NCBI GenBank assembly: GCA_021443825.1
Contig: JABUTE010000263.1
Coordinates: 1-43,432 of the forward strand
Direction: 5' to 3'
From: Bacillota bacterium
GTDB lineage: Bacteria > Bacillota > Clostridia > Peptostreptococcales > Anaerovoracaceae
Length of the DNA: 43,432 nucleotides
The notes beneath the pieces were generated by a model. The model was not told the origin of the DNA, did no database searches, and saw only the letters and a program-made list of their open reading frames with translations. Shown one piece after another: positions 5,969 through 43,396 of this stretch; within the stretch, counting starts at the first letter, position 1; the number at the start of each line of letters is the position of its first letter. Both the position numbers and the translations under genes were made by a program.

Positions 5969-6265
5969 ATGATCCAGGCGATCGAAAAGCTGAATCCCGT
6001 CGGTTCTTTGCTGAAAGAAGAAAAGACCGGCAGTACCAACGGAGCCAACCCCTTCGAATCCATCTTTCGCTCGGCGGTCGAGCAGGTAAAGCAGACCGAC
6101 GCCGAAAAGAATCAGGCAGAATATCTGCTGGCCACCGGCCAGCTTGATAATCCGGCAGAGCTGATGACCGCGCTCACCAAAAACGAGCTGTCGGTAAGCC
6201 TGCTGGTGCAGCTTCGCAACAAGGCGCTGGACGCCTATTCCGAGCTGGCAAGAATCAGTCTCTAA
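5969..6265 (+). CDS. fliE: Flagellar hook-basal body complex protein FliE
   Basis: 98 aa. Contains FESIFRSAVEQVKQTDAEKNQAEYLLATGQLDNPAELMTALTKNELSVSLLVQLRNKALDAYSEL, plus synteny. Confidence 0.9.
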   Translation: MIQAIEKLNPVGSLLKEEKTGSTNGANPFESIFRSAVEQVKQTDAEKNQAEYLLATGQLDNPAELMTALTKNELSVSLLVQLRNKALDAYSELARISL

Positions 6266-6277
6266 CCTAAAATTCAA

Positions 6278-6364
6278 AATCGAATATCCGGCAAACCCGG
6301 GGAAACCCGGCGACGCAAAACTCCAGAGCCTGTAAAATGGCAGTCAGTTGCAATTTCTGAATAG
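6278..6364 (+). promoter_or_regulatory. Class-I c-di-GMP (GEMM-I)-like riboswitch aptamer
   Basis: UCCGGCAAAC-CCGGG-GAAA-CCCGG-CGACGCAAAAC-UCCAGA…UCUGAAUAGCUG. The GCAAAC, the GNRA-capped helix, GACGCAAA(A)C and the downstream UAGC match the hallmark of GEMM-I (compare Vc2 GGGCAAACC-AUUC-GAAA-GAGU-GGGACGCAAAGCC). Recognised by eye; no covariance model was run. Confidence 0.7.
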
Positions 6365-21874: not shown

Positions 21875-23965
21875 ATGAAAAAAGCACTGCAGACCGTCAT
21901 GGACAATGCCATCGCTCTTGGCGTCGTCATCGTCGTTCTGTTCATGATCATTCCTCTTCCGTCCTATCTGCTGGACTTTTTCCTTATCGTCAACATCGGA
22001 CTTTCCATCGCCATCCTGATGATCACCATGAACATCACCGAGGCCCTGGAATTTTCCATATTCCCGTCCCTTTTGCTGGTGACCACCCTGTTCCGACTGG
22101 CGCTGAATGTTTCCAGCACCAAGCTGATCCTGGCCAACGGCTATGCCGGCGAGGTCGTTCAGAATTTCGGTCTTCTCATCACCGGCGGCAACATCGTCAT
22201 CGGTGTCGTCATCTTCCTGATCATCGTGCTGGTGCAGTTCATCGTCATCACCAAGGGCGCTGAACGTGTCGCAGAGGTCGCAGCCCGCTTTACCCTGGAC
22301 GCCATGCCCGGAAAGCAGATGGCCATCGATGCCGATCTCAGCTCCGGCCTGATCGACGAGCAGGAGGCCCGCAGACGCAGAGACAAGATCCAAAAGGAAG
22401 CCGATTTCTACGGCGCCATGGACGGTGCTACCAAGATCGTCAAGGGCGATGCCATCATGTCGCTGATCATCACCCTGATCAACTTCGTGGGCGGCGTGCT
22501 CATCGGCATGCTGATGAACGGCGGCGATTTCGCCTCTGTTCTGTCGAAGTATTCCATCGTCACCATCGGTGACGGCCTGGTATCCCAGCTGCCGGCTCTG
22601 ATGATCTCGACGGCAACGGGCATGATCGTTACCCGCTCCGTATCGGAGGGAAGCCTCAACCGGGATGTGATCGCCCAGTTCAAGGCCCAGCCCAGAGCCA
22701 TCATGACCACCGGCGTCATTCTGGTGGTGCTGGCCTGCGTGCCCAGAACGCCCCATGTCGCTCTCTTTCTGGCGGGCGGCGTGCTGCTGGGAGGCGGCTA
22801 TCTGATCAGCAAGAACATGGAAAAGGAGCGGGTTCTGGTGGCTTCCGAGCAGCCTGCGCCCACCGAGACCCAAAGCGAAGGCGACTTCTACAAGAATATC
22901 GACAACGTCTATTCCCTGCTGTCGGTAGAACCGATGGAGATGGAATTCGGCTACAGCCTGATCCCCCTGGTAGACGAAAGCCACGGAGGCAAGCTGATCA
23001 ACCGCATCGTCATCTTCCGCCGCCAGTTCGCGTCGGATATGGGCTTCGTATTCCCCTCCATCCGTCTCCACGACTCCTCTGCCGCCGGAACCAACCAGTA
23101 CATCATCCGCATCCGCGGCGAAGAGGTGGCCAGAGGCGAGATCCTGGTCGACTACTATCTGGCCCTGGAGCCGCCAAATCCGGCAGGCGAGATCAACGGC
23201 ATCGAGACGGTGGAACCGGCCTACGGCATTCCCTCCCGCTGGATCCTGCCCGAAGACAGAGAGCTGGCCGAGGTCTACGGCTATACGGTCATCGACCCTC
23301 TGTCGGTCATGCTCACCCATCTTTCCGAGGTCATCAAAAAGCACGCCCACGAGCTGCTTGACCGCTCCACCGCCATTCAGCTGGTAAACAACCTGAAGCA
23401 GACGGCCCCCGAGATCGTCGACGAACTGGTGCCCGGCACCGTATCCTATGCCAATCTGGAAAAGGTGCTCAAGAACCTGCTCAAAGAAGGCATTCCCATC
23501 CGCGATCTTGGTCTCATCATCGAAACGCTGGGCGACAGCCTGGCCCAGGGAAGAGACGTGGATGCCGCAACGGAGCAGATCCGCGGCGTTCTTTCCAGGA
23601 CCATCACCAGACGGTTCTGCGAAGACGGCCAGCTGAAGGTCGTTACTCTGGATGCCGAGCTGGAAAAGCGGATCATCGGTTCTCTTACCCGCAGCGACCA
23701 GGGCATCTTCCTGGAGCTGGGTCCCGAGCTGATGCAGCAGATCATCGCCCAGATGAGCGAAAACCTGAAGAAGTTCAGCGAGCTGTCAAGAACGCCTGTG
23801 CTGCTGGTAAGCCAGATCATCAGGCCCTATTTCAGCAGGCTTATCACCCAGTTTTATCCCGATGTATATGTGCTGGCCTTCAATGAGATCACCAATGCGG
23901 TGCAGATCCAGGCGATCGGTAATATCTCTGTTGCAGATGCCGGAGCAAAGGCGGTGAACCAATGA
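21875..23965 (+). CDS. flhA: Flagellar export gate protein FlhA
   Basis: 696 aa. Conserved FHIPEP region (…RFTLDAMPGKQMAIDADL…ADFYGAMDGATKIVKGDAI…) and a large cytoplasmic C-terminal domain. Confidence 0.97.
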   Translation: MKKALQTVMDNAIALGVVIVVLFMIIPLPSYLLDFFLIVNIGLSIAILMITMNITEALEFSIFPSLLLVTTLFRLALNVSSTKLILANGYAGEVVQNFGLLITGGNIVIGVVIFLIIVLVQFIVITKGAERVAEVAARFTLDAMPGKQMAIDADLSSGLIDEQEARRRRDKIQKEADFYGAMDGATKIVKGDAIMSLIITLINFVGGVLIGMLMNGGDFASVLSKYSIVTIGDGLVSQLPALMISTATGMIVTRSVSEGSLNRDVIAQFKAQPRAIMTTGVILVVLACVPRTPHVALFLAGGVLLGGGYLISKNMEKERVLVASEQPAPTETQSEGDFYKNIDNVYSLLSVEPMEMEFGYSLIPLVDESHGGKLINRIVIFRRQFASDMGFVFPSIRLHDSSAAGTNQYIIRIRGEEVARGEILVDYYLALEPPNPAGEINGIETVEPAYGIPSRWILPEDRELAEVYGYTVIDPLSVMLTHLSEVIKKHAHELLDRSTAIQLVNNLKQTAPEIVDELVPGTVSYANLEKVLKNLLKEGIPIRDLGLIIETLGDSLAQGRDVDAATEQIRGVLSRTITRRFCEDGQLKVVTLDAELEKRIIGSLTRSDQGIFLELGPELMQQIIAQMSENLKKFSELSRTPVLLVSQIIRPYFSRLITQFYPDVYVLAFNEITNAVQIQAIGNISVADAGAKAVNQ

Positions 23966-24765
23966 GCATTGAACCGCAGACCCCGAAAAGGGAATACACC
24001 GAGGCTGAGATTCTGGCCATGGAAACGGAAGAGCTGCTGGCGCTGTATAAGGCGACCGGCGATCCCGATCTGAAATGGCCCCTGGTGCTGCGCTACGAGG
24101 ATATGATCCGCCGGGTCGCTCTTCGGATCAACTCCGTCTACAGCAGCTTTGCCCAGATCGACGACATCGTAAACGAAGGCATCTTCACCCTGCTGGGCGC
24201 CATCGACAAGTACCAGCCCGAACGGGGCGTCAAATTCGAGACCTATGTTTCCAAGCGCATCCGCGGCATGGTCTTCGACCTGGCAAGAAAGCAGGACTGG
24301 ACGCCCCGCAACGTAAGGCAGAGAGCCTCCGAGATCGACCGGGCCGCCCAGGAGCTGACCGCAGCCCTGGGGCGCTACCCCACCGAAAGCGAAATGGTCG
24401 AAAAGCTGGAAACGACTCCCGGCCGTTACCAGAAGGATGTGGCAGACATCGCCATGAGCAACGTGCTGTCGCTTGATATGCTGCTGGATTCTCAGGCCGA
24501 TAACGATTACCGGGTCGAGGTTCCCAGCTCCGACATGAGCGTGCAGCCCGAAAGCGTGCTGCAGGCCAAAGATCTGCAGCAGACCCTGGCAGAGGCCATC
24601 GCCTCGCTGGGCAAGAACGAGCAGCTGGTGCTGTCGCTGTTTTACGAAAAGAATCTGAGCATGAAGGATATCGCCAAGGTGCTCGATCTCAGCAGCCCCC
24701 GGATCTCGCAGATCCACTCCCGGGCCATCGAAAAGCTTCGGGCCTATATGGAAAACAACGCTTGA
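23962..24765 (+). CDS. fliA: Flagellar sigma-28 factor (FliA/SigD family)
   Basis: 267 aa with region 2 (…DDIVNEGIFTLLGAIDKYQPERGVKFETYVSKRIRGMVFD), region 3 and region 4 (LSMKDIAKVLDLSSPRISQIHSRAIEKLR). ATGA overlap with flhA. Confidence 0.9.
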   Translation: MSIEPQTPKREYTEAEILAMETEELLALYKATGDPDLKWPLVLRYEDMIRRVALRINSVYSSFAQIDDIVNEGIFTLLGAIDKYQPERGVKFETYVSKRIRGMVFDLARKQDWTPRNVRQRASEIDRAAQELTAALGRYPTESEMVEKLETTPGRYQKDVADIAMSNVLSLDMLLDSQADNDYRVEVPSSDMSVQPESVLQAKDLQQTLAEAIASLGKNEQLVLSLFYEKNLSMKDIAKVLDLSSPRISQIHSRAIEKLRAYMENNA

Positions 24766-26288: not shown

Positions 26289-27020
26289 TTAATGGCGGGG
26301 ATTCTTTTTTACGATCTCGCAGGCCTTTACCAGCTGCGCGGTGATGCTGGCCGATACCTTGCCCTCGTAGACCGAGATCCGGGGGGCGGCGTCGCTTTGG
26401 TTGGTCACCACGTATTTGGGGATCAGGTTATTCAGAGCAATGGCCATGGCGTCGCAGCGGCAGCGTCTGCAGCAGCAGGCTCCCGAAAGCTGCAGAAACC
26501 GGTCCACGTTTTCGTCTACCAGGATCTGCATCACATTGATGATAGCCAGGTCATCATCGTTATCGCCGAAGAGCGGCACGGGCTGCGAAGCAGGAAGGTC
26601 TTCCGGCTTCAGGCCGCCGTCTGTCTGCTCTGCCTCCTGCGAAAGAGCGGCTGCGATGGCTTCGGCTGCTTCGTCTTGTGGCAGGCTGTTTTCATCGCCG
26701 GCGGCAGCTTCGGGCAGCGACTGCCCGGGTGCGACCTCATCCTGAAGGCTTTCCAGAAGGGCCTTGTTGATCAGCTCCGCCAGCGTTCTGTCGTCTCTGG
26801 AGGAGGCGATGATCGGCTGGCTCTGGCGAAGGGGATTTTTTTCCAGAGCCCGTTCGTCGCCGGAATTGGCCGTATGGGGAACCGGGATCTCGCTCTGGGT
26901 CCTGCTGAGCAGATTCATGACATTTGCCGTTTTGCGTGTCGTATTATTGATTTCCGAAGACACCTTAAGCTCCTTTTCTGATAAATCTGAGATTTTGTGC
27001 TTATTTAAATTATATTCCAT
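26289..27020 (-). CDS. ComFB-domain protein with a long acidic/disordered N-terminal region
   Basis: The C-terminal 90 aa carry the ComFB (PF10719-type) pattern: FLQLSGACCCRRCRCDAMAIALNNLIPKYVV…KVSASITAQLVKACEIVKKNP. The start is trimmed to ATG 27020 (MEYNLNKHK…) because the longer ORF runs into fliD. No clear SD, so the start is uncertain. Confidence 0.65.
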   Translation of the reverse strand: MEYNLNKHKISDLSEKELKVSSEINNTTRKTANVMNLLSRTQSEIPVPHTANSGDERALEKNPLRQSQPIIASSRDDRTLAELINKALLESLQDEVAPGQSLPEAAAGDENSLPQDEAAEAIAAALSQEAEQTDGGLKPEDLPASQPVPLFGDNDDDLAIINVMQILVDENVDRFLQLSGACCCRRCRCDAMAIALNNLIPKYVVTNQSDAAPRISVYEGKVSASITAQLVKACEIVKKNPRH

Positions 27021-29067: not shown

Positions 29068-29454
29068 ATGGACCCCAGAGCGAATCAGAAATATAAAGAG
29101 CAGAGCATCAACACCATGACGCCCGAAGAGCTGCTTTTGCTGCTCTTCGACGAACTGGTCAAGCGGCTTTTGCGGGCAGAGCTGGAGCTGAAGGCGAAGA
29201 ATTTCGATCAGTTCGAAGAAAGCGTTACCCGTGCCATCGATATCATTCAATATCTCAGCAACACCCTCGATCGCAGCTATGAAGTAAGCGCCGGGCTCGA
29301 CAAGCTCTATGAATATTTCATCTACCAGCTGGGAAGAGCAAAGATCGGCCGCAACCAGGAGGTGCTCGGCTCGGTCAAGGATTATGTATCCCAGCTGCGC
29401 GATACCTTCCGCCAGGCCAAGGCCAACGCAGAAAAGGAGCCTGCTGCCTTATGA
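29068..29454 (+). CDS. fliS: Flagellin-specific export chaperone FliS
   Basis: 128 aa. …YKEQSINTMTPEELLLLLFDELVKRLLRAE…FDQFEESVTRAIDIIQYLSNTLD is typical of FliS. Confidence 0.9.
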   Translation: MDPRANQKYKEQSINTMTPEELLLLLFDELVKRLLRAELELKAKNFDQFEESVTRAIDIIQYLSNTLDRSYEVSAGLDKLYEYFIYQLGRAKIGRNQEVLGSVKDYVSQLRDTFRQAKANAEKEPAAL

Positions 29455-29840
29455 CACCCAACGTTCTGCAAAGCGCATTAAGCATCGAAAAGACCATGGC
29501 AGGGCTGCTGCGCGAGACCCAGGACATCAGCCGCCAGCTGGCAGAGGCACTCGACCGAAGCGACAAGGTGGTGATCTCCATGCTCACCGCCATGCGGCAG
29601 GAGCCCATCGAAGGGCTCAAACGCCAAAGGCGCCTGCTGGAAGACCTGCGAGACTCCCTTCCCGAAGAAGAGACAAAGCACTTTGCCGGTCTTCTTAACG
29701 GCGAGCAGCCGGAGTCTTCCGAAGAAGCCCCACTGGCCGCTCAGGTCGCAGCAAACCGAAGGCTTCTTACCCAGCTGCTGGAGCTGGATAAACGGCTGAG
29801 TCTGAAGCTGGGCGCAGACAAGTCCTTCTATAAGCTGTGA
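29451..29840 (+). CDS. Hypothetical helical protein, possible FliT/FlgN-like export chaperone
   Basis: 129 aa, ATGA-coupled to fliS, predicted all-helical, in the fliD-fliS-fliT position. No diagnostic motif. Confidence 0.35.
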   Translation: MTPNVLQSALSIEKTMAGLLRETQDISRQLAEALDRSDKVVISMLTAMRQEPIEGLKRQRRLLEDLRDSLPEEETKHFAGLLNGEQPESSEEAPLAAQVAANRRLLTQLLELDKRLSLKLGADKSFYKL

Positions 29841-29967
29841 TCAAAAATTAATACGTGATCGTTACAGCCGGGGGCATTTTTTGCTGCCCGGCGTTCGAGT
29901 CCCATATCTCATATCTCTTCAGGGAAGCCTGCCCACCCCCTGTCAACCCACCCAGGAGCCCCGCTGT

Positions 29968-30756
29968 ATGCCCATCATTACGCTGGAAAACGCCGGAAAG
30001 GACTACAAAGTCCGAAAAGGCCACGGCGTCAACGGTAAAAGGATCATAAACGCAGTCGACGACATCAACCTTGCCATTCGGCAGGGTGAATTTGTGTTTC
30101 TGATCGGCAGCAGCGGCGCCGGAAAATCCACTCTTCTCAATCTGATCAGCGGCGATATCAAGCCCACCCGAGGCAAGGTCTGTCTTGACGGGCGAGATCT
30201 TGCCCTTCTGAAGTTCCTCAGCGGAAAAACGACGCTGCAGTTCGGCAAGGTCTCCCAGACCGGCACCCTGGTGCGCCGCATGACGGTGATGGATAACCTG
30301 ATCCTGGCAGGCATGATCGGTCGCGGCCCCTTCGAGTCAAAAAAGAAGGTGCGCATGCGGGCAGAAAAGGTTCTGGGCCTTGTGGGCATGCAGGGCTACG
30401 GAGAGCGGTTTCCCGCAGAGCTTTCTCTTGGCGAGAGCCGCCGCATCGAGCTGGCCCGGGCCATGATCAACAGTCCGCCGGTGCTGATCTTAGATGAGGT
30501 CACCGCCAATCTGGACGACGACAACATTTGGGATATCTTTCACCTTTTAACGGAGATCAACCGCAGAGGAACCACCGTCATCATGGCGACCCACGCAGGC
30601 ACCTATGTCAATATCATGCGCCGAAGGGTCATCACCCTGGTCGACGGCAAGATCTATTCCGACGTTCCCAACGGCCGCTACGAAGCCGTGCGCAAAAGCC
30701 CGCAGGAGCAGGCCTTGCCGGGGGCTTCTGTACAGGATTTTTTCAATAACAGATAA
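29968..30756 (+). CDS. FtsE-like ABC ATPase with a degenerate signature motif and no adjacent permease
   Basis: Start trimmed to ATG 29968 (AGGAG 9 nt upstream). Walker A GSSGAGKST, Q-loop, signature LSLGESRR (instead of LSGGxQQR), Walker B VLILDEVTANLD, H-loop IMATH. Confidence 0.8.
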   Translation: MPIITLENAGKDYKVRKGHGVNGKRIINAVDDINLAIRQGEFVFLIGSSGAGKSTLLNLISGDIKPTRGKVCLDGRDLALLKFLSGKTTLQFGKVSQTGTLVRRMTVMDNLILAGMIGRGPFESKKKVRMRAEKVLGLVGMQGYGERFPAELSLGESRRIELARAMINSPPVLILDEVTANLDDDNIWDIFHLLTEINRRGTTVIMATHAGTYVNIMRRRVITLVDGKIYSDVPNGRYEAVRKSPQEQALPGASVQDFFNNR

Positions 30757-30787: not shown

Positions 30788-31612
30788 ATGAAAAAGATCA
30801 AGCTGAACAAAAAAATCATTATCATACTGGCCGCCGTTTTGGTGGCGGCTGCGGTCGGCGCCTTCTTTCTGCTCAAGTCGAAAAAGCCGGCCGAAGAAGA
30901 GCTCTCCGAGGAGCCGGTCGACAACACCATCGAGGCGCCTTTGCAGTACGCTGTGGGCGAAAAGCTTTTTACCGCTCTTCCCGTTTCCGGAGAGACCGTC
31001 ACGGTCACGGCGGGCGAGGTCGACGAAGAGGGAACCATCCTCAGCTATTGCTACAGCGGTTATAAGGATATGCCCGGCCTTCTTTCGGGCTACAGCACCC
31101 TGATGTGCACCTCCGATCTGGGCTTTTCGCGAGTTGATGAAGAGATGGAGCAGCTGGACGAAACGACTCTGGCCGCCCCGCTTCCCGCCGAGGGCACCCT
31201 GCGTCTGCTGCACAAAGAAGAGATCTCACCGACGGCGCAGCTGATCACCGTCACCTGGAAGGGGCAGGACTGCACCGTCGCCGCCAAATCGACCGTTATC
31301 CGGCCGAAGAAGGTTGCCAAGGCTACTTCTTCTGCAGCTGCCATGACCATCACCGACGTGCAGGATTACGTGCAGAACCTGAAGCCTTCGTATCTGGGGC
31401 TCGACGGCGAATCCATGGCAGAATATAACGTCTACCTCATGGACGGCTATGCCCGCATGGGCGACACCTACTGTATGCGCTTTAATGTATACCGCACCGA
31501 CGGCGTGGCCGGAACCAACGAGATCGCCGGCATGTATACCATCAGCTGCGACAGCCAGAAGGTCTACCGCTACGATGCCGATGCCCGCACCGTGACCGAG
31601 CTGAGCGAATAA
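30788..31612 (+). CDS. Single-pass membrane-anchored extracytoplasmic protein of unknown function
   Basis: 274 aa with an N-terminal signal anchor (KKIIIILAAVLVAAAVGAFFLL). The C-terminal about 80 aa resemble a PepSY-like beta-rich module (…MYTISCDSQKVYRYDADARTVTEL). No recognised family. Confidence 0.6.
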   Translation: MKKIKLNKKIIIILAAVLVAAAVGAFFLLKSKKPAEEELSEEPVDNTIEAPLQYAVGEKLFTALPVSGETVTVTAGEVDEEGTILSYCYSGYKDMPGLLSGYSTLMCTSDLGFSRVDEEMEQLDETTLAAPLPAEGTLRLLHKEEISPTAQLITVTWKGQDCTVAAKSTVIRPKKVAKATSSAAAMTITDVQDYVQNLKPSYLGLDGESMAEYNVYLMDGYARMGDTYCMRFNVYRTDGVAGTNEIAGMYTISCDSQKVYRYDADARTVTELSE

Positions 31613-31704: not shown

Positions 31705-31732
31705 CTTAACATTTTCAAAACTGTGCCGATTA
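31705..31732 (+). promoter_or_regulatory. Sigma-28 (SigD/FliA)-type promoter of the flagellin gene
   Basis: CTTAA-N15-GCCGATTA against the consensus (C)TAAA-N15-GCCGATAA, about 185 nt upstream of the flagellin ATG. Confidence 0.6.
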
Positions 31733-31916: not shown

Positions 31917-32837
31917 ATGCGTATTCAGCACAACATCAGCGCCATGAATTCTTATCGCAACCTGACCAACAACAACAGCGCTCTGTCCAAGAACCTTGAG
32001 AAGCTCTCTTCCGGTTACAAGATCAACAGAGCAGGCGACGATGCTGCAGGTCTGGCAATTTCCGAAAAGATGAGAGCACAGATCACCGGTCTTAACGCTG
32101 CTACCAAGAACGTAAAGGACGGCATCTCTCTCGTAAAGACTGCAGAAGGAGCTCTGCAGGAAGTTCATGACATGCTCAACAGAATGGTATACCTGGCCGA
32201 ACAGTCTGCAAACGGAACCTACGACGATGCCGTAGACCGTCAGGCTCTGCAGGACGAGGTAACCTCTCTGGCAACTGAAATCACCCGTATCGGTGAGACC
32301 GCTAACTTCAACGGCAAGAAGCTCTTTGCCAACGGCGACAACCTGACCTCGCAGAACGGCGGCGTCGGCATCATGCAGCTGCAGATCGGCGACAGCGCCG
32401 CTGCAGAAGAGCGCCTCGACCTGAGCGTTGCCCTGGCCGGCTCCGAAGATGCTGCCGACCTGAAGACTCTGGTCTCAACCATCACCGACGGAACCCTGAA
32501 CGTACAGACTGTTGATGCAGCTACCACTCTTCTGGCAACCCTCAGAGGCGGTGTAGACACCGCGGGCACCGAGGTAACTCCCGCAGACGGCCTGATCAAT
32601 CAGGTATCCTCTCTCAGAGGTAAGCTGGGCGCAACCCAGAACAGACTGGAGCATACCCAGAACAACCTGGCAGTTATGACCGAAAACATTCAGGATGCAG
32701 AATCCACCATCCGCGATACCGATGTAGCCGAAGAAATGATGGCTTACACCAAGAACAACATCCTGATCCAGTCCGCTCAGGCTATGCTGGCTCAGGCAAA
32801 TCAGGTACCGCAGGGCGTACTTCAGTTAATGCAGTAG
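31917..32837 (+). CDS. fliC: Flagellin (FliC/Hag)
   Basis: MRIQHNISAMNSYRNLTNNNSALSKNLEKLSSGYKINRAGDDAAGLAISEKMRAQI… and C-terminal …LIQSAQAMLAQANQVPQGVLQLMQ. 306 aa with a short variable domain. Confidence 0.97.
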   Translation: MRIQHNISAMNSYRNLTNNNSALSKNLEKLSSGYKINRAGDDAAGLAISEKMRAQITGLNAATKNVKDGISLVKTAEGALQEVHDMLNRMVYLAEQSANGTYDDAVDRQALQDEVTSLATEITRIGETANFNGKKLFANGDNLTSQNGGVGIMQLQIGDSAAAEERLDLSVALAGSEDAADLKTLVSTITDGTLNVQTVDAATTLLATLRGGVDTAGTEVTPADGLINQVSSLRGKLGATQNRLEHTQNNLAVMTENIQDAESTIRDTDVAEEMMAYTKNNILIQSAQAMLAQANQVPQGVLQLMQ

Positions 32838-32879
32838 TCTCCAGACTGCATCATATTGTTTCACCAAACAATTGCAATG

Positions 32880-32912
32880 GCCGGGCTTTATGCCCGGCTT
32901 TTGTGTTTTTTT
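32880..32912 (+). terminator. Rho-independent terminator of the flagellin gene
   Basis: GCCGGGC-TTTAT-GCCCGGC followed by TTTTGTGTTTTTTT. Confidence 0.85.
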
Positions 32913-32933: not shown

Positions 32934-32961
32934 TTAACTATTATGTGAAACCTGTCGATAA
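32934..32961 (+). promoter_or_regulatory. Candidate sigma-28-type promoter for the FliK-like / FlhB-C-like / PilZ operon
   Basis: TTAA-N16-GTCGATAA (one mismatch to GCCGATAA), 60 nt upstream of ATG 33022. Confidence 0.4.
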
Positions 32962-33021
32962 ATATATCGGGATACTACATTCATCCCCATTTTTTGATGA
33001 TTTTACGGGAGGAGATCCGCC

Positions 33022-34452
33022 ATGCCCGATATTCTTGGGGCTGCAAAACCGGTACAAGCCTACGATAAGGCGATCAACAGCCGCAATACCCCCATTTCCC
33101 CCGAGAGCACCCGCGTGCAGAACAGTCCCGTTCCCGGCGTGGGCATCCAGGCCCCCCAAAGGCACAGCCAGGGCCAGGAAAGCAATCTGGGAAACGGCGG
33201 CGGTATTTATTACGAATCCAACTTCAAAAGCTTTCTGGACCGTCTGGAAAACACGCCCTTTTTAAGCGAAGAAACAGCCGGTCTTTTTGCCGATGCCGCA
33301 ATGCAGGCAGAGCTGCCCCAGCTGGCTTCGCCTCTGCAGGCCGACCTGGCGCAGGCTCTCAGCCTCATGGAGGGCGACGACCGGCTTTTAGAGCTTCTCA
33401 TGGAGCAGGTCAACAACGGAAGCCTGTTTGCCGGCAGCTTCTTCAATGTATTAAGAGAAGCTCTCGAAAAAGACAATGCCGCCTTCCTTAAGAAAGACGT
33501 TTTGAACTTTTTAAAATGCTGGATGGATCATTCCGCTCAGGGCCATATCGAAAACAGCATCCGCCAGGATCTGGACCGGCTGGCCCAGTCGCTGCCCCAA
33601 AGCTGGGGCCAAAAGCTGCAGGAGCTGGCCCGCGTCGTCGATAAGAACATGGCAGCCGGCAACCGCAGCGGCGCGCTGCAGCTGCTGGAGGGCAGCCTGA
33701 TGCCCTTTTTGCACCGCTACTTTTCGCTGAGCCATCAGACGGGCACGCCCCGCATGTATCTCAGCATGCTGGTGCTCAACATCGCCCGCTACGAAAACAG
33801 CTCCCTCGAAAAGCTGAACGAAAGCTTTACCCGAATGATGAGCTATTCCGGTTTAAAGCATTCTCTGGGAGGCATCACCTTAGAGCAGCTGCTGCAGCAG
33901 TTCTCGCCGGCGCAAAAAGGCGAAGGCTCCCGCCTAAGCGGCTTAAGCCAGGCCCTGGGCTCTGCCGCAGAGCAGGTCATGAACGGCGACGGAAGCCCCG
34001 AGCTTTTGCAGCTGCTTCGCCGCTTTACCGCATCGGCGCTGGTCAACGAAAGCGTCTACATGCCCATCAATCACTATGTGCTGCCCCTGCAATACAAGGG
34101 CACGGCCCACATGGCTGAGCTTTGGGTCGACCCCGACAGCGAACAGGAGAGCAAAGGTGGCAAGGCGAAAAAGCCTGCCTGCAAGCTGTATTTTAAGATG
34201 GAGCTGGCGCCTTTAGGCAGCCTCGATATGATCGTTACCGCCGCCGAAAACCGGGTAGCGGTCAATCTCTTCTGCCCCGAAGAGGTGATGCCTTTTTCCA
34301 GGCAGATCCAGACGGCTCTTACCGACATATTGAAAAACAACCAGCTTGAGGCCGCGTCCATCACCGTTAAAAAGGCAGATCACCGGCTCAGCCTGCGAGA
34401 AATATTCCCCAAGATCGATCAATGGAGGAACAGCGTAGATGTCAGGATATGA
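33022..34452 (+). CDS. FliK-like protein (second hook-length-control-type C-terminal domain)
   Basis: 476 aa, GGGAGGAG SD. The C-terminal segment KLYFKMELAPLGSLDMIVTAAENRVAVNLFCPEEVMPFSRQIQTALTDILKNNQLEAASITVK follows the L-x-L-x-P-x-x-LG-x-(beta strands) pattern of the FliK domain seen at 12650-12900. The rest has no recognised motif. Confidence 0.55.
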   Translation: MPDILGAAKPVQAYDKAINSRNTPISPESTRVQNSPVPGVGIQAPQRHSQGQESNLGNGGGIYYESNFKSFLDRLENTPFLSEETAGLFADAAMQAELPQLASPLQADLAQALSLMEGDDRLLELLMEQVNNGSLFAGSFFNVLREALEKDNAAFLKKDVLNFLKCWMDHSAQGHIENSIRQDLDRLAQSLPQSWGQKLQELARVVDKNMAAGNRSGALQLLEGSLMPFLHRYFSLSHQTGTPRMYLSMLVLNIARYENSSLEKLNESFTRMMSYSGLKHSLGGITLEQLLQQFSPAQKGEGSRLSGLSQALGSAAEQVMNGDGSPELLQLLRRFTASALVNESVYMPINHYVLPLQYKGTAHMAELWVDPDSEQESKGGKAKKPACKLYFKMELAPLGSLDMIVTAAENRVAVNLFCPEEVMPFSRQIQTALTDILKNNQLEAASITVKKADHRLSLREIFPKIDQWRNSVDVRI

Positions 34453-34729
34453 TAAAAGCAGCGGCCCCGCCGAAAAGGCCGTGGCCCTTTCCTATACAGA
34501 CAGAGATTCCGCACCGGTCATCGTCGCCTCGGGCATGGGGCCTCTTGCCGAAAGGATCGTTGAGGCAGCCGCTAAAAGCGGCGTTCCCATCTACGAAGAC
34601 AACTCGCTGGCCACCGTGCTCACCAGGCTGCAGCTGGGCCAGGAGATCCCGCCGGCCCTTTACAGCGCCATCGTAGAGATCTATCTGTATTTTCTTAATT
34701 TCGACGTCGGCGAAAGCCGCAAGCAGTAG
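34439..34729 (+). CDS. Stand-alone FlhB C-terminal-subdomain paralog (EscU/YscU/HrcU-like, YlqH/COG2257 type)
   Basis: The 96-aa product aligns with this window's own FlhB immediately after the NPTH site: KAVALSYTDRDSAPVIVASGMGPLAERIVEAAAKSGVPIYEDNSLATVL…EIPPALYSAIVEIYLYF versus FAVALRYDPEKDNAPILLAKGQDELALRIVKVAEENKVAVVEDVPLARAL…EIPQELYSQVAEVLVYVF. Confidence 0.85.
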   Translation: MSGYDKSSGPAEKAVALSYTDRDSAPVIVASGMGPLAERIVEAAAKSGVPIYEDNSLATVLTRLQLGQEIPPALYSAIVEIYLYFLNFDVGESRKQ

Positions 34730-34756: not shown

Positions 34757-35362
34757 ATGTCAGATTACTTTGATGATTCCATGTTTCTTTTGCTCAACGA
34801 AGACGGGCAGACTCTGGGCAGCGGAACCCTTGTGGGCCCCCTGCGCAGCGGCCGCATCGAGCTGAAGCTCAGCCCCATCAGCGGGCAGATACCAGAGGGC
34901 GAGCCTGTGATCCATATGGTGGGCATGGGCGACACCAGCCTGGCCCTGCGCTGCCGCGTGATCGGCCGTAAGGGAAGGACCCTGTTCCTGAAAAAAACGG
35001 AGCTGCTCTCGCCCGACTACCGCGAGAACCTGAGGGTAAAGACCGATTTTTGCAGCTTTCTTTATCCCCTGGACGACAGTCTGCGGGGCAGATGCCCCAT
35101 CGAAAGCAAGGATCTTTCCTGCGGCGGCATCGCCTTTTATGCCGATGAAGAGCTGCAGAAGGGGCAGATCTTCGAGATCGTGATCCCCGTTACCGAAGAG
35201 CCGATCATCGTGCCCGGAAGGCTTCTGCGAAGCCAGCAGGACGGGCAGAAGACCCTCTACGCAGCCGCCTTCAGCGACCTTTGCCACGATCAGGAACGGG
35301 AGATCCGCGGCGCGGTGTTCCGCATTCAGCTGCAGAACATGTACCAGCCCGCCAAACAGTAA
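34757..35362 (+). CDS. PilZ-domain c-di-GMP receptor, MotI(DgrA/YpfA)/YcgR-like candidate flagellar brake
   Basis: 201 aa. RxxxR motif (Y-RENLR-V) and D-x-S-x-x-G motif (DLSCGG) at PilZ spacing; an N-terminal beta-rich PilZN-like half. Confidence 0.7.
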   Translation: MSDYFDDSMFLLLNEDGQTLGSGTLVGPLRSGRIELKLSPISGQIPEGEPVIHMVGMGDTSLALRCRVIGRKGRTLFLKKTELLSPDYRENLRVKTDFCSFLYPLDDSLRGRCPIESKDLSCGGIAFYADEELQKGQIFEIVIPVTEEPIIVPGRLLRSQQDGQKTLYAAAFSDLCHDQEREIRGAVFRIQLQNMYQPAKQ

Positions 35363-35389: not shown

Positions 35390-35418
35390 CTTATTATTTC
35401 AGGTGCTGCTGCCGATAT
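35390..35418 (+). promoter_or_regulatory. Sigma-28-type promoter of the flgM-flgN-flgK-flgL…csrA operon
   Basis: Perfect -10 GCCGATAT (35411-35418) 54 nt upstream of the flgM start. The -35 is poor (CTTA at 17-nt spacing). Confidence 0.5.
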
Positions 35419-35471
35419 AAATAGTGATGAAACAAAGCATTGCATACACATTTTGAAAGGAGTGAGTCTCA

Positions 35472-36290: not shown

Positions 36291-38201
36291 ATGAGTTCCA
36301 TAGGTTCTTTTGCTTCCATGACACAGGCCCGGCTCGGCATCTATGCCGCCCAGAACGGCCTCAGTGTTACCGGAAATAATATCGCAAATATCAATACAGA
36401 GGGCTATACCCGCCAGAGGCTGGAGCAGTCCAGCTTTGCCGCCACAGGCTCCGATCGCTATTACTCCGCTACCGATGTAAAAACCGGCAACGGAGTTCTT
36501 TGCACTGGAATCTCCCAGATCCGCGACGGCTATATGGATGTTCGTTACCGCAGCCAGGCCAGCAATGCCGGCGCCATGAACGCCCGCTATACCGGCCTCG
36601 ACGGTCTGAGCGCCATTCTCGACGAGGTGGGCGACGGCGAAGACGGCTTCGGTATTCTGGGTTCTCAGTTCCAGGAGCTTTACGAAGCCTTCCAGACCCT
36701 GACCGACCAGACCGGTCACAACATCTACGACACCCAGGTCAGAGCCACCGCCCAGACCCTCACCGACACCATGCGCTCTTATGCCAACCGCCTGTCGGAG
36801 CTTTACAACAACTCCCTCACCAGCTTTAAAGAAGACATCGTGCAGGTCAACCAGATGCTGAAGAGCATCAGCAACCTGAGCTACGAGATCCGTAAAAGCG
36901 AGATCCGCGGCGACAAGGCGCTGGAGCTGCGCGACCAGCGCAACACCCTGATCGACAGCCTGTCCGAATACATCAAGATCGATGTGATCTACGAAATGGA
37001 AGACATCGGCGGCGGCGCCCAGGTCGAAAAGCTGATCCTCAAGCTGGCAGGCGCCAACCCCGATCCCTCTGTCACCACCGACTCCTCCACCATTCTGGAG
37101 GGCAGCTACTGCACCCAGTTCTCCATCCTCAGCGAAGACAACATGATGCTGGGCATCAGCGCATTAAAGGATTCCAAAGACCGGGTGCTCTACAGCCTCA
37201 CCAAGGCCGAGCCCGAGCTGACCGATGCCGCCGATTACGGCGACGGTCTCACCCGCAGCGTCTACGACGAGACTACCGACACCACTACCATCACCACCTT
37301 CGAAAAGAAGGGCGACCTCTATTACAAGCAGGTCTATACCAGAGCTCCGTCGCAGGATATCGCTCTTGACGATAACGATCTGTACGGCGCCTTCCAGTCG
37401 GCCAGAGAGATGCTCACCGAGCAGGGCGAGTTCAGCACACAGGATACCATCCTGAATATCGACGAATATGCCGACGAAAAGCGGGGCATTCCCTATTATC
37501 AGAAGGCCCTCGATCTTTTGGCAAAGCAGTTCGCCGATGCCCTCAACGCCGCCAACACCGGCTACCTGCGCAACGAAAAGGGCCAGTACATCGATGCCGA
37601 CGGCAATGCGCTCATCTTCAATTCCGCATTCCTTTCCGACGGCGATGCCCTCGACGAAGACCAGCTTGCCTACCTGAAAGAAAACGGCGTACGGCCCGGC
37701 TTCAACCTTTTCAGCACCGGCGGCGACACCGACAGCGACGAAGGACTGAATGCCTCCAACATCAGCATCTCTTACAGCTGGGGCAGCGGCAAGCATGTGA
37801 TCACCTCTTATGTCAAGCCCACCGGCATGGAGATCGCCACCACCGACAACAGCAACGTGCTCCACATGATCAGCATGTTCACCGAAGATATGGACTACAT
37901 CCCCTCGAAGGTGCAGGAGGGCAGCACCGATAATGCCATCTTCACCGGCTCCTTCATCGAGATGTGGGACAACATCGGTTTTGTATTAGGAAGCGATATG
38001 AAGATCACTTCCACCCTTTACGATAACTACAGCGCCGCGGCCACCGAGCTGGATTCCGCCAGGATCTCGGTCTCTTCCGTCGATCTCAATGACGAAGCGA
38101 TGAACCTGATGCAGTATTCCAAATCCTACAGCGCCGCCTGCCGCCTGATGACTACTCTGGACTCCCTTCTGGATAAGCTCATCAACGGCACCGCGATCTA
38201 A
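36291..38201 (+). CDS. flgK: Flagellar hook-associated protein 1, FlgK
   Basis: 636 aa. N-terminal LGIYAAQNGLSVTGNNIANINTEGYTRQR and C-terminal …SVDLNDEAMNLMQYSKSYSAACRLMTTLDSLLDKLIN. Confidence 0.93.
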   Translation: MSSIGSFASMTQARLGIYAAQNGLSVTGNNIANINTEGYTRQRLEQSSFAATGSDRYYSATDVKTGNGVLCTGISQIRDGYMDVRYRSQASNAGAMNARYTGLDGLSAILDEVGDGEDGFGILGSQFQELYEAFQTLTDQTGHNIYDTQVRATAQTLTDTMRSYANRLSELYNNSLTSFKEDIVQVNQMLKSISNLSYEIRKSEIRGDKALELRDQRNTLIDSLSEYIKIDVIYEMEDIGGGAQVEKLILKLAGANPDPSVTTDSSTILEGSYCTQFSILSEDNMMLGISALKDSKDRVLYSLTKAEPELTDAADYGDGLTRSVYDETTDTTTITTFEKKGDLYYKQVYTRAPSQDIALDDNDLYGAFQSAREMLTEQGEFSTQDTILNIDEYADEKRGIPYYQKALDLLAKQFADALNAANTGYLRNEKGQYIDADGNALIFNSAFLSDGDALDEDQLAYLKENGVRPGFNLFSTGGDTDSDEGLNASNISISYSWGSGKHVITSYVKPTGMEIATTDNSNVLHMISMFTEDMDYIPSKVQEGSTDNAIFTGSFIEMWDNIGFVLGSDMKITSTLYDNYSAAATELDSARISVSSVDLNDEAMNLMQYSKSYSAACRLMTTLDSLLDKLINGTAI

Positions 38202-39289: not shown

Positions 39290-39913
39290 TTGGACCGTCT
39301 AATTGAAATCAGAAGCGTACCCATCGAGATCGAAATGAAGATCAGCCCCGCCAGACTGGAATATACCAGAGGCACCGCCGATCTTGAAATATCAAGAGAC
39401 GAGGGCATGCTGAGCATCAAGAGCAAGCCCATCAAGGTCAATATCGACAGCTACGATGCCCGCAGCTCTGTGATCCCTTCCCTTGCCGATTCCCTTCGCC
39501 AATATGCCCAGTACGGGCGTCAGGCAGCCTACGAGGCCTCGGCCACCTATGCCACCCACGGCCAGCTGCTGCTGAAGGCGCGCATCGGCGAAGACATGAT
39601 CGCTCAGTTTGCCAGAGAGGTCACCGATAAGCATATGGAGACCAACGTGGGCATCAAGTTCATTCCTCAGGAGCCGGTAAAGCTTGACTGGGATCCTGCC
39701 GAGCTGAACATCCGCTTTGAGATGGATAAGCTGAATCTGGACTGGAAAATGAACAAGGCCCAGTTCGAATTCATTCCCGGAAATATCGAGATCAGCATCA
39801 CCCAGATGCCCGACGTGATCATCGAATACGTGGGCGGTCCGGTGATCTTTCCGTCCCCAGCCGCAAACGATTCTGAGGTGATCGACGTGATCGCCACCAC
39901 AGGAGGCTTTTAA
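39290..39913 (+). CDS. YviE-like (DUF6470-type) protein of unknown function
   Basis: 207 aa, TTG start with GGAGAGGAGGAA SD. It occupies the flgL-yviE-fliW-csrA position known from B. subtilis. Family assignment is from synteny and memory. Confidence 0.55.
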   Translation: MDRLIEIRSVPIEIEMKISPARLEYTRGTADLEISRDEGMLSIKSKPIKVNIDSYDARSSVIPSLADSLRQYAQYGRQAAYEASATYATHGQLLLKARIGEDMIAQFAREVTDKHMETNVGIKFIPQEPVKLDWDPAELNIRFEMDKLNLDWKMNKAQFEFIPGNIEISITQMPDVIIEYVGGPVIFPSPAANDSEVIDVIATTGGF

Positions 39914-40355: not shown

Positions 40356-40598
40356 ATGCTTATACTCCAACGAAAAGCCGGTGAATCGCTCGTCATCGGC
40401 GAAGATATCGAGATCACCGTCGTATCGGTCGGCCGCGGTCAGGTCAGCCTGGCGATCGCAGCGCCCTCCGATGTATCCATCTTAAGAAGCGAGCTTTTGA
40501 AGGCAAAGGAATCCAACAAAGAAGCATCTCTTGAGGCCGCCGACGCAGCCGCCCTGATGGATCTTCTCGCTGCCGCAAAGCAGGTGGCAGAGAAGTGA
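40356..40598 (+). CDS. csrA: Carbon storage regulator CsrA (flagellin translation repressor)
   Basis: 80 aa from ATG 40356: MLILQRKAGESLVIGEDIEITVVSVGRGQVSLAIAAPSDVSILRSEL. Confidence 0.95.
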   Translation: MLILQRKAGESLVIGEDIEITVVSVGRGQVSLAIAAPSDVSILRSELLKAKESNKEASLEAADAAALMDLLAAAKQVAEK

Positions 40599-40627
40599 TT
40601 CTGTTTCACGAAAACGAGGTGATCTGT

Positions 40628-43396
40628 ATGAAACGATTCTTATCTCTTTTACTCTCTCTTGCGCTGACCGTATCGGCCTTGCCGATGGTCGTCTTTGCAG
40701 AGGAATCCGATATCACCTTCAGCGACCTTTCCGTCGACATCGCAGAGGATGCCGTCTACGGAGATCTCTGGGGTGATATCGTTGCTTTTTCCGGCGGTAC
40801 TGCCACAGCAAACGGCGAGCCGGTAGAAGGAACCTTTACTCTTAAGGATGCCGATGCGCCGGTGCCCGGTGCCGGACGTCAGGCCTGGCAGATCCTGTTT
40901 AATTCCGCAGACGGCAATTATACTGATGTGATCGCCCAAAGCGGCACCATCGAAGTCGCAAAAGCGGAGTTGACGGCGACGGTGCGCAATCTCCAGGTTG
41001 TATACGGATCGGAATCTCCCTATAATGCCGTTGATCCTTATCAAGTAGAGATCGCCGGCTTTGTCGAAGGTGATGATGAATCGGTCCTCCTCGGAACACC
41101 GGTCTATACCGGATATACCAAGGGCGACAATGCTGATGTCTATTCCATCGAATTGTCCGGCTTGTCTGCGCAGAACTATAATATCTCTTATTATCCCGGA
41201 CAATTAACGGTAGGGCCCAGACTGATCCAGATATGGAATAATTCTCTGTATTTGGAAAAGACCTACGATGGTTTATTTACCGCCGGTGCGGATATTTCTA
41301 AAACAGGTTCACTTGTCATTTCGAACAAGTACGGTTCCGACGATGTAGACATCGACTTTAACAGAAACACAGGCAATGCTGTAGTCACATTTGATCAGAA
41401 GGATGTGGGTCAGTATTCTGTTACCATTGCAGGCATGGCCCTTATCGGTGCTGATAAGGATAATTACCGACTGAATGCCACCTATGTGATGGATGATGTT
41501 TCCGGCGAGATCACTCCCGCAGACATCACCGGGGAAATGCCCCCTGCGAATAAAAAAGTATTAGCCGGCAGCGGCAGCTTTGAAGAGCCTGTTATAAAGG
41601 GCTTTGCTTCCGATCCGAAAATTTACGGTACATTTCTTTATTCCTATGGAGATATTACCCGTGGCAGCCAATCAGATGTTGAATCTGCGCTGTCCCGTCT
41701 TCCTGTCGGAACGACCGGAACCATCAACTGGACCTTTGATCCTTCTCCCAGCGATAATCTAAATAATTATCGAGGTACGGTCACCGGTTCGATCAACTTT
41801 ACCGTTGCCGAGATCCTGTTTCTCGTTGCCGGAACAGATGCGACCGTTGATAACGTCATCGATGTCAAGATCGATGCGCCGGTCTACGGCGACAGCTGGA
41901 GCAGCATTCTCGACATCGATGCATCGCATATCACGGCCCTGACCGGCGACGGAGCAGTCTCCGGAACCTATTCGCTGGATGTTTCCGGTAATCCCGGAGT
42001 CGGCACTCAGACCTATCGGTTGCTGTTCAGCGGAACTTCCGCAAGCCATACCTATACCGACATGGAAGTTTTGACCGGTTCTGTTGCCATTGCGCCTCGG
42101 CCCCTTACCGTCACCTGGAGCGGCGATGAAAACCTTGTTTACGACGAAAACCCCAAGAGCGTTACGGCAGAGGTGTCCGGAGCTGTCGACGGTGAGGATG
42201 TGACCGTATCGGTCCGCGGCGGAGACAAAATAATTCCCGGCACTTATCAGGCAACCGCCTCCCTGCTTTTCGGCCCCGGTGTAGACCCCGATAACTACTG
42301 CGTCAATGAGGCCGATCTGCGCAGATCCTATACCATCGTGCCCGGCACGATCACCGGCGATATCGGATTTACGCCTGTAAAAACAAGCGGAAAGACCTTT
42401 GCCGATCTTCAGATCAACTACGGCACCCTGGAACCTGCAAACGGAGTGCTTATCGTCACGGATGCGACGGGCGAACAGGTAGACGATTCTACCCCGGTCG
42501 AAAAGAATGAGATCTATAACTATCGTTATGATTATCCGCATTACTATACGTATTACGGCTCCTTCGTTCCGTGGAAGACGGCAAGCGGCAGCGTTTCCGA
42601 TGATTCTCAGGGAAAGAATACCCTTTCCTTTAATACCAACGGCGGAAGCGAGCTCGTTTCGATCAGCAAGCTGCGCGGAAACATCATCGATCTGGAAGAG
42701 TATACTCCTCATAAAGAGGGCTTCGAGTTCGAAGGCTGGTATTCCGATCCCCAGCTGACCAACAGGATCACCACCATTCAGCTCGGGGCGAACATGACCG
42801 TTTACGCCAAGTGGGTCGCTGTTCTGCCCGCAGGAGGCTTCTTCACCGATGTTGCTGCAGACAGCTGGTATCAGGCTTATGTAAACGACCTGTATGAGCG
42901 CGATATCATTCACGGCTTCTCAGACGGAAGCTTTAAGCCCAACAGCAGCATCACCAGAGCCCAGTTTGTGACCATTCTGGCAAATATGGCAAAGGCAGAT
43001 CTGAGCAGCTACACTGACGTAGTCTTTACCGATGTAGCAAAAGGCGACTGGTATTTCGGGGCCACCTGTTGGGCATACGAAAACGGTGTCGTTATGGGCC
43101 ATGATGACGGAACCTTCCGTCCCAATGCACCGATCACCCGCCAGGAGCTTTGCACCGTGCTCGACCGGTTTGCAGGCAATGTTATGAAATTTGAGCTCGC
43201 AAGCCCTGAAGCTGCCGAAGCCTTTGCTGACGCAGATCAGATCGCACCCTATGCGGCGGCATCTGTCAATAAGCTGAAGGCAGCCGGCATCATCAGCGGC
43301 AAAGGAAACAATATCTTTGCTCCCAACGCGCCTGCCACGAGAGCAGAGGTCTGCAAGATGGTCTCTGTGCTGCTGGACATAGTTGAAACTAGATAA
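40628..43396 (+). CDS. Large cell-surface protein: signal peptide, repeated MBG/YDG-type beta domains, a Listeria-Bacteroides (InlB B-type) repeat and three C-terminal SLH domains
   Basis: Start trimmed to ATG 40628 (MKRFLSLLLSLALTVSALPMVVFAEE). Has repeated …VYG…Y…NY…GxLTV modules and LSFNTNGGSE…EGFEFEGWYSDPQL…MTVYAKW. The three SLH units begin FTDVAADSWY…, FTDVAKGDWY… and FADADQIAPY…. Confidence 0.85.
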   Translation: MKRFLSLLLSLALTVSALPMVVFAEESDITFSDLSVDIAEDAVYGDLWGDIVAFSGGTATANGEPVEGTFTLKDADAPVPGAGRQAWQILFNSADGNYTDVIAQSGTIEVAKAELTATVRNLQVVYGSESPYNAVDPYQVEIAGFVEGDDESVLLGTPVYTGYTKGDNADVYSIELSGLSAQNYNISYYPGQLTVGPRLIQIWNNSLYLEKTYDGLFTAGADISKTGSLVISNKYGSDDVDIDFNRNTGNAVVTFDQKDVGQYSVTIAGMALIGADKDNYRLNATYVMDDVSGEITPADITGEMPPANKKVLAGSGSFEEPVIKGFASDPKIYGTFLYSYGDITRGSQSDVESALSRLPVGTTGTINWTFDPSPSDNLNNYRGTVTGSINFTVAEILFLVAGTDATVDNVIDVKIDAPVYGDSWSSILDIDASHITALTGDGAVSGTYSLDVSGNPGVGTQTYRLLFSGTSASHTYTDMEVLTGSVAIAPRPLTVTWSGDENLVYDENPKSVTAEVSGAVDGEDVTVSVRGGDKIIPGTYQATASLLFGPGVDPDNYCVNEADLRRSYTIVPGTITGDIGFTPVKTSGKTFADLQINYGTLEPANGVLIVTDATGEQVDDSTPVEKNEIYNYRYDYPHYYTYYGSFVPWKTASGSVSDDSQGKNTLSFNTNGGSELVSISKLRGNIIDLEEYTPHKEGFEFEGWYSDPQLTNRITTIQLGANMTVYAKWVAVLPAGGFFTDVAADSWYQAYVNDLYERDIIHGFSDGSFKPNSSITRAQFVTILANMAKADLSSYTDVVFTDVAKGDWYFGATCWAYENGVVMGHDDGTFRPNAPITRQELCTVLDRFAGNVMKFELASPEAAEAFADADQIAPYAAASVNKLKAAGIISGKGNNIFAPNAPATRAEVCKMVSVLLDIVETR

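Follow-up and report, generated by a model that had tools for sequence, protein, structure and literature searches.

We have identified, in a 43,432-nucleotide (nt) stretch of a Bacillota bacterium genome (contig JABUTE010000263.1; hereafter the window), two overlapping genes that encode a soluble FliK2/YlqG-type protein of 476 amino acids (aa), here called K2, and a FlhX/YlqH-type protein of 96 aa, here called FlhX. The window is a large flagellar cluster, as indicated by Pfam and NCBIfam scans of its open reading frames (ORFs). Judged from the sequences, the two genes are very probably an unannotated Oscillospiraceae member of the known FliK2/YlqG-FlhX/YlqH pair, and what is added here is a conserved PilZ partner, a fixed gene overlap, and an invariant K2 tail, VDVRI. 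We propose that K2 and FlhX would form a soluble complex acting on the flagellar export switch, and for the whole statement, pair identity together with the inferred mechanism, we estimate a probability of roughly 0.45. The positions of both ORFs and their overlap in the ORF list (Table 1) agree exactly with those of an initial annotation, which was made from the sequence alone and described the pair as a second, soluble copy of the FliK-FlhB specificity switch.

On sequence grounds, FlhX is a free soluble paralog of the FlhB fragment that remains after autocleavage (FlhB-CC, also FlhB-CCD), as the initial annotation had proposed. In the comparison with PF01312 (Bac_export_2), only profile positions 258-334 of 335 matched (E 6.6e-18). 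In BLASTP, FlhX and the FlhB encoded in the window itself (20771-21829) were 40% identical over FlhB residues 265-347 (E 2e-15), with the match beginning at the NPTH motif, and FlhX residue 10 aligned with residue 1 of the fragment left after cleavage (chain B) in the FlhB-C crystal structures 3b1s and 3b0z. The NPTH motif itself is absent from FlhX, where GPAE occupies that position and where relatives have RAKK, LRRA or PRQA. The membrane domain and the linker are missing as well, with a peak 19-residue Kyte-Doolittle mean of 1.23 versus 2.53 for FlhB, and hydropathy analysis found no membrane-spanning hydrophobic segment in K2, FlhX or the PilZ protein. Among NCBIfam models, the best for FlhX is TIGR00789 (flhB_rel, 'FlhB-like flagellar biosynthesis protein'), at 89.7 bits, and the FlhB model TIGR00328 gives 58.1 bits; since the former exceeds the latter, FlhX appears to belong to an old, separate FlhX/YlqH lineage. 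In this respect FlhX resembles Helicobacter pylori FlhX, likewise a small soluble homologue of FlhB-CC only, although its score remains under the TIGR00789 cut-off of 117.35 bits.

The C-terminus of K2 is predicted, with moderate support from sequence profiles and structural models, to be a FliK-type T3S4 domain, that is, a FliK/PscP-type substrate-specificity-switch domain. The AlphaFold model of residues 335-476 reached a predicted local distance difference test score (pLDDT) of 86 and a predicted TM-score (pTM) of 0.79, and its top Foldseek match in the PDB was the PscP switch domain 5cuk (E 7.5e-3, probability 1.00, TM-score 0.53), with FliK-C (2rrl) at rank 7 (probability 0.97). The low-confidence model of full-length K2 also gave 5cuk as the top match. 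In the family alignment, the LG signature of the domain is present and G399 is invariant, and Flg_hook is the family most often matched by K2 relatives (8/62, best E 0.0015). In terms of profile comparison, hhalign of the K2 family against Pseudomonas aeruginosa FliK2, which itself passes Flg_hook (E 9.9e-19), gave a score of 41.2 (E 8.8e-5), compared with shuffles (n = 60) that averaged 14.5 +/- 2.1 and did not exceed 19.4. The corresponding comparison with Bacillus velezensis YlqG gave 32.8 (E 1.6e-3), where the highest of 60 shuffles reached 21.3, and the C-terminal 126 residues of YlqG aligned with K2 through its final residue, which bears out the label 'YlqH-type' used in the initial annotation. 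By AlphaFold, the domain follows a disordered N-terminus (residues ~1-66) and a helical middle region (67-345), and this modelled helical region argues against a simple ruler role for K2.

K2 had no Pfam or NCBIfam match above threshold, BLASTP against the window's own FliK (11954-13021) returned nothing significant, and the K2 family profile found only noise among PDB sequences. Its relatives in databases are called 'hypothetical protein', without a precomputed Pfam domain, and when the broad alignment was used for a second word-indexed protein search, these Oscillospiraceae 'hypothetical proteins' came up again and none had an informative name. The initial annotation had spoken of a soluble duplicate of both switch partners. 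Considering that K2 has no detectable similarity to the window's FliK and that FlhX prefers TIGR00789 over the FlhB model, a recent duplication is not supported.

K2 and FlhX are strongly conserved as neighbours. A profile search related 594 cluster representatives to K2 at E<=1e-3, and a scan of one genome per species located K2 relatives in 378 species. The best 80 of these 378 were taken as related loci; all belong to Oscillospiraceae or to unclassified Clostridia/Bacillota metagenome-assembled genomes, and 79 of them extend downstream. Across those 79 loci, the order K2, FlhX, PilZ gene is always kept and the K2/FlhX overlap is always exactly 14 nt; two more distant loci (L086 and L087) have the same overlap, and the PilZ gene is also present in L087. 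The overlapping genes differ strongly in their rate of divergence, with identities across relatives of 62-76% for FlhX and 35-42% for K2 (never above 42%), and of 31-50% for the PilZ protein. Outside this lineage, YlqG (567 aa) overlaps YlqH (93 aa) by 4 nt in B. velezensis, a 492-aa 'FliK' overlaps a 111-aa FlhB-C-like protein by 4 nt in the P. aeruginosa record, and in Acetoanaerobium noterae a 499-aa FliK-like protein is separated by a 3-nt gap from a 92-aa FlhX. Thus, both the conservation of the pair as neighbours in other genomes and the translational coupling of K2 and FlhX, which had been suggested from the window, were borne out by the constant overlap in relatives and by the loci in Bacillus, Pseudomonas and Acetoanaerobium. 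No K2 protein carrying a fused FlhX at its C-terminus was found among the listed relatives, and the longer ones (585-650 aa) end where K2 ends. Read from the sequences, three features are specific to the lineage, namely the helical middle region of K2, the PilZ gene and the constant overlap of 14 nt.

These conservation data bear on the possibility that the pair is a decaying duplicate or a chance-ORF artefact without function. The lack of any Pfam or NCBIfam match above threshold for K2 and the uninformative names of its relatives would fit such an origin. However, relatives occur in 378 species, FlhX is 62-76% identical among them, the order and the overlap are invariant, and the domain model is confident, and because of the conservation this explanation is effectively refuted; we find it hardly credible.

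Two candidates were rejected in the course of these searches. Several FlhX tblastn matches in a plasmid collection proved to be full-length FlhB genes and were excluded, and programmed frameshifting in the 14-nt overlap was set aside, as ordinary termination-reinitiation explains the arrangement. A 337-aa metagenome fragment is 99% identical to K2; since the identity in the one-genome-per-species data does not exceed 42%, the organism has apparently been captured in sequencing, but a close reference genome is lacking.

K2 ends in the pentapeptide VDVRI, and the corresponding pattern (Table 1) stands at the extreme C-terminus in 62/62 aligned members of the K2 family. This motif is short, and the pattern was chosen after sight of the sequences. 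The tail of B. velezensis YlqG is VDVKI, and that of Escherichia coli FliK, VDIFA (L088 5497-5511), resembles it as well. In Salmonella, the last five residues of FliK have been proposed to engage the cleaved FlhB C-terminal domain (FlhB-CCD) and to flip the switch (PMC13344023). The K2 tail also resembles the strand ADVVIR that precedes NPTH in the window's FlhB, and the start of FlhX lies past this strand. In the lineage's genuine FliK proteins, the C-terminus is variable and a conserved QQLRLGL lies about 5-8 residues ahead of it. At residues 66-75, K2 has the conserved motif SNFKSFLDRL, whose resemblance to FxxxPhi, by which early export substrates are recognized at the gate, we consider a lead only. 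When K2 was compared by BLASTP with the window's FliK, the top local match (K2 68-86, FliK 34-53) fell on this motif, with an E-value of 2.9 that is not significant.

In terms of published work, the pair itself is not new, which removes the novelty that the initial annotation had implied. In Pseudomonas putida, PP_4328-PP_4329 have been named fliK2-flhX and form an operon with FliA-dependent transcription, described as having a function 'still uncharacterized'; a flhX-fliK locus has been mentioned for Nitratiruptor, and FlhX is a standard query in flagellar gene surveys. To our knowledge, the functional data on FlhX/YlqH consist of the 'spare part' experiments in H. pylori. According to the title of PMC1636261 and the summaries of papers citing it, H. 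pylori FlhX (HP1575) is a 'spare part': with FlhB-CC deleted, it allows export to proceed.

The relationship of the window's pair to its known counterparts is one of shared architecture and different detail. On the one hand, Pseudomonas fliK2-flhX has the same order, a FliK-like protein followed by an FlhB-C-like protein, overlapping genes and an alignable T3S4 domain, and the FliA-dependent transcription in P. putida parallels the SigD-like box in the window. On the other hand, Pseudomonas FliK2, unlike K2, passes Flg_hook, its N-terminal two-thirds are unrelated to K2, and the overlap there is 4 nt. B. velezensis YlqG-YlqH likewise pairs a large protein with a downstream 93-aa partner, named 'FlhB-like flagellar biosynthesis protein', whose gene overlaps that of the first, and YlqG shares with K2 the C-terminal alignment and the tail described above; it differs in its housekeeping context (rnhB ... 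sucCD) and in the greater length of YlqG. This YlqG homologue (L081 2298-4001) is called 'glycosyl transferase' in RefSeq, a label that looks wrong since the protein has no Pfam glycosyltransferase domain and its C-terminal part is alignable to the switch domain of K2. The 499-aa protein of Acetoanaerobium (L085 1474-2973) matches DUF6240 (PF19753; 30.2 bits, cut-off 26.6) in addition to Flg_hook (29.4 bits, E 7e-7), so that DUF6240 may be the Pfam family covering part of the YlqG-type proteins; K2 had no DUF6240 match in Pfam. Xanthomonas HpaC/HrcU-C is a further parallel, in which a T3S4-type protein is reported to set substrate specificity through binding to the C-terminal domain of an FlhB/YscU-family protein and to an early substrate. 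That system is an injectisome, and the partner of HpaC is HrcU, which is bound to the membrane and is no free paralog.

Compared with the canonical FliK/FlhB switch, the pair has both of its domain types, a T3S4 domain plus terminal residues and the C-terminal domain that FlhB releases by cleavage, hydrophobic pocket included, whereas FlhX has no membrane domain, linker or NPTH, K2 has a folded helical middle in place of the ruler, and K2 shows no detectable similarity in sequence to the window's FliK. Recent work in Salmonella (2026) indicated that the cleaved FlhB C-terminal domain holds the export gate in its early mode and is the docking site of early substrates, and that FlhB-CCD is lost in a FliK-dependent manner when late genes turn on (PMC13344023). 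In the mechanism that we propose, the overlapping genes would supply K2 and FlhX in a fixed ratio, and the two proteins would form a soluble complex, which we consider somewhat more likely than not. The T3S4 domain and the last five residues of K2 would hold FlhX as FliK-C engages the cleaved FlhB C-terminal domain, with the K2 tail binding FlhX by supplying the beta-strand that FlhB-CN gives to FlhB-CC. After hook completion, when the FlhB C-terminal domain leaves the gate, FlhX would act in trans at the vacated site, either replacing the lost domain or regulating the site; K2 would either keep FlhX off the gate or load it there, and the PilZ protein would add an input from cyclic di-GMP (c-di-GMP). 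Action at the export gate is the more tentative part of this proposal, and we regard it as possible.

The main alternative would be a cytoplasmic sink or decoy, in which the soluble FlhX pocket binds leftover rod- or hook-type gate-recognition motifs, or FliK, and K2 captures the ejected FlhB C-terminal domain, making the switch irreversible without any docking at the gate. The early-substrate pocket of Salmonella FlhB consists of A286, P287, A341 and L344 (PMC9307174), and its counterparts in FlhX are A25, P26, V79 and Y82, each at least 90% conserved in the 80 relatives; this hydrophobic, conserved pocket would suit a sink. The same is true of the Salmonella finding that the pocket of FlhB-CCD is the docking site of early substrates and that this domain goes to the cytoplasm at the switch (PMC13344023), and of a late-type promoter, as suggested by the box of the window and by P. 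putida. This function is also near to the 'decoy' idea of the initial annotation. However, the pocket residues of the FlhB encoded in the window are A, P, A and L, so that two positions of FlhX differ (A to V, L to Y), and the ligand of FlhX may therefore differ from that of FlhB. In addition, the reported H. pylori genetics indicate that FlhX can act at the gate. We consider the sink or decoy function unlikely.

The layout of K2 raises the question of whether the two proteins work together at all. In an arrangement of independent roles, FlhX would be a trans-acting spare FlhB-CC, K2 would be a second secreted FliK-like ruler or switch acting on the genuine FlhB, and co-regulation would be their only link. 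K2 indeed has a FliK-like layout, with a conserved hydrophobic N-terminus, a disordered stretch, the FxxxPhi-like motif and the T3S4 domain, and PGAP calls the Pseudomonas partner FliK. Against this, the strict conservation of the gene overlap in different phyla speaks for production of the two proteins in stoichiometric amounts; the middle of K2 is, in the AlphaFold model, a folded helical domain and not a low-complexity ruler; and a genuine FliK is already encoded elsewhere in the cluster. Accordingly, we judge independent roles to be quite improbable.

The likeness of the K2 tail to the strand before NPTH allows yet another possibility, in which K2-FlhX would be a 'split' FlhB C-terminal domain with the K2 tail as the FlhB-CN strand. 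Such a domain would be reloadable and could re-arm or lock the gate after the switch under the control of the PilZ protein and c-di-GMP. The same strand may be displaced by the last five residues of FliK (VDIFA) when FlhB-CCD is removed, and if this possibility were true, strand displacement would be suggested as the way in which FliK flips the switch. We consider it unlikely.

Several observations weigh against the proposed identity and mechanism of K2-FlhX. With regard to the switch domain, K2 matched PF02120 (Flg_hook) over residues 381-451 at E 0.046 and 14 bits, under the gathering threshold of 29.8, so that the Flg_hook-type C-terminus claimed in the initial annotation stands by the AlphaFold/Foldseek result and by hhalign to FliK2 and YlqG and not by that profile. 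The Foldseek E-values of 7.5e-3 and 0.21 are modest. A further hhalign comparison, between the K2 family and an alignment of the lineage's genuine FliK proteins, paired the right regions at a score of 19.2 (E 0.15), which is noise; it was discarded as evidence because the score is at the level of the shuffles, and for that reason K2 is closer to FliK2/YlqG than to genuine FliK. With regard to the tail, P. aeruginosa FliK2 (VDETA) retains the motif only in part, and the FliK-like partner in Acetoanaerobium lacks it. The conservation of the motif in Oscillospiraceae may also be partly a matter of DNA, considering that the FlhX start codon lies inside the [ND]-V codons (xAT GTx), although this embedding cannot explain the Bacillus tail because the overlap there is only 4 nt. 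With regard to the gate, the window's FlhB has an intact NPTH, and since it keeps this motif no 'spare part' is obviously needed. The PilZ gene is missing from the Bacillus and Pseudomonas pair loci and from the more distant locus L086. Lastly, no SigD-type box matching at least 10/12 positions was found on the K2 strand in the regions upstream of K2 homologues in the 79 related loci; because of this result, the claim of a late promoter is confined to the window and P. putida, and the SigD-type promoter of the initial annotation is represented by a candidate box that precedes the operon in the window.

The control signals around the pair were located in the window (Table 1). The ribosome-binding sites of K2 (GGGAGGAG, 33007-33014) and of the FlhX gene (GGAGGA, 34424-34429) are both rated good. 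Upstream, the intrinsic terminator of the flagellin gene (31917-32837) parts that gene from K2, and the SigD/sigma-28-like box that follows matches TAAA-N15-GCCGATAA at 3/4 plus 7/8 positions (10/12). Upstream of the flagellin gene, at 31706, stands an almost identical box, TTAAC-N14-GCCGATTA, and a loose SigD pattern is found at 21 places in the window, where shuffles give 9.9 +/- 3.4. A sigma-70-family gene with regions 2-4 lies at 23962-24765, a position typical of sigD/fliA. Downstream, a terminator scan between the FlhX gene and the PilZ gene found none, and co-transcription with the PilZ gene, already proposed in the initial annotation, is consistent with its place directly after FlhX. 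The stop codon of the PilZ gene is 110 nt from flgM, and a weak hairpin with a T-run precedes the SigD-type -10 box of flgM; box and hairpin together suggest that flgM-flgN-flgK are probably a separate late operon. Based on the flagellin terminator, the SigD-like box, the lack of an inner terminator and the separate flgM box, K2, FlhX and the PilZ gene are read as a three-gene operon.

In the relatives, the operon has another neighbourhood, adjoining a divergent cheA-cheR operon and standing upstream of an S-layer-homology protein, not beside flagellin. A sequence TATCG[AG]C is conserved on the forward strand of the intergenic region between the two operons, about 40-70 nt upstream of the K2 starts across loci L001-L080. 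It reads G[TC]CGATA on the opposite strand, where it is probably the SigD-type -10 box of the divergent cheA operon.

The PilZ protein matched PF07238 with an E-value of 2.6e-10 (41 bits against a cut-off of 22.5), and its RxxxR and DxSxxG motifs, read from the sequence as RENLR and DLSCGG, are intact, so that it is a putative c-di-GMP receptor. In these motifs, and in the position of its gene beside flgM-flgN, it resembles the PilZ flagellar regulators YcgR, MotI/YpfA and FlgZ. It differs from them in that phmmer found no match among PDB chains and the N-terminal 85 residues have no Pfam match. A c-di-GMP-I riboswitch (RF01051) was found at 6280-6355 on the forward strand, with 49.5 bits against a gathering threshold of 35 (E 7.6e-7). 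It sits in the main flagellar operon between a 98-aa ORF (5969-6265) and a 544-aa ORF (6572-8206), which by their position may be fliE and fliF. Together with the PilZ gene, the riboswitch gives the cluster two c-di-GMP inputs, and its presence in the same cluster places the pair in a c-di-GMP-regulated flagellar system.

Table 1. Positions of the K2-FlhX-PilZ genes, their control signals and the K2 sequence features in the window
Feature	Position	Strand	Description
K2	33022-34452	+	476 aa, ATG start; soluble FliK2/YlqG-type protein (ORF list)
FlhX	34439-34729	+	96 aa, ATG start; FlhX/YlqH-type protein (ORF list)
K2/FlhX gene overlap	34439..34452	+	14 nt, between K2 stop and FlhX start
PilZ gene	34757-35362	+	201 aa; third in the operon, begins 27 nt past the FlhX gene
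Intrinsic terminator of flagellin gene	32879..32909 (also 32879-32899)	+	8-bp stem with 7 G-C pairs, then T-run
SigD/sigma-28-like promoter box	32934..32961	+	TTAAC-N15-GTCGATAA, 61-88 nt upstream of K2 ATG
SigD-type -10 box of flgM	35412..35419	+	perfect GCCGATAT, 52 nt upstream of flgM GTG at 35472
Predicted T3S4 (switch) domain of K2	34069..34374	+	residues ~350-451
K2 motif SNFKSFLDRL	33217..33246	+	residues 66-75; S-[NV]-[FY]-x-x-F-[ILV]-x-x-L (alignment columns)
K2 terminal pentapeptide VDVRI-COOH	34435..34449	+	pattern [VIL]-[ND]-[VI]-x-[IVLA]

The remaining genes of the window include, by Pfam, FliD, FliS, flagellin, FlgM, FlgN and FliW, and a 636-aa ORF at 36291-38201 is presumably flgK, by position alone. 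The ORFs at 26292-26981, 29451-29840 and 30788-31612 lie in the cluster and matched no Pfam family. The last of these (274 aa) is strongly hydrophobic at its N-terminus and gives faint NCBIfam matches of the FliL type, and it is directly preceded by an ABC-transporter ATPase gene (29881-30756), between fliS and the flagellin gene. A DUF6470 protein (39290-39913, E 4.7e-51) is encoded just upstream of fliW. The window ends with a 933-aa protein (40595-43396) having S-layer-homology, Flg_new, MBG and YDG domains, and S-layer-homology proteins are also found downstream of the K2-FlhX-PilZ operon in relatives.

In summary, in terms of what the pair means for this family, the window does not reveal a new kind of system. 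In the records examined, both Bacillota and Pseudomonadota have FlhX/YlqH proteins with FliK-like partners, so that at least two phyla are represented. The window gives a name to an unannotated family in Oscillospiraceae and provides constraints on it in the form of the 14-nt overlap, the invariant K2 tail and the conserved PilZ protein. Considering the FliK-dependent loss of FlhB-CCD in Salmonella (PMC13344023), a free copy of this domain with a FliK-like partner of its own becomes more relevant.

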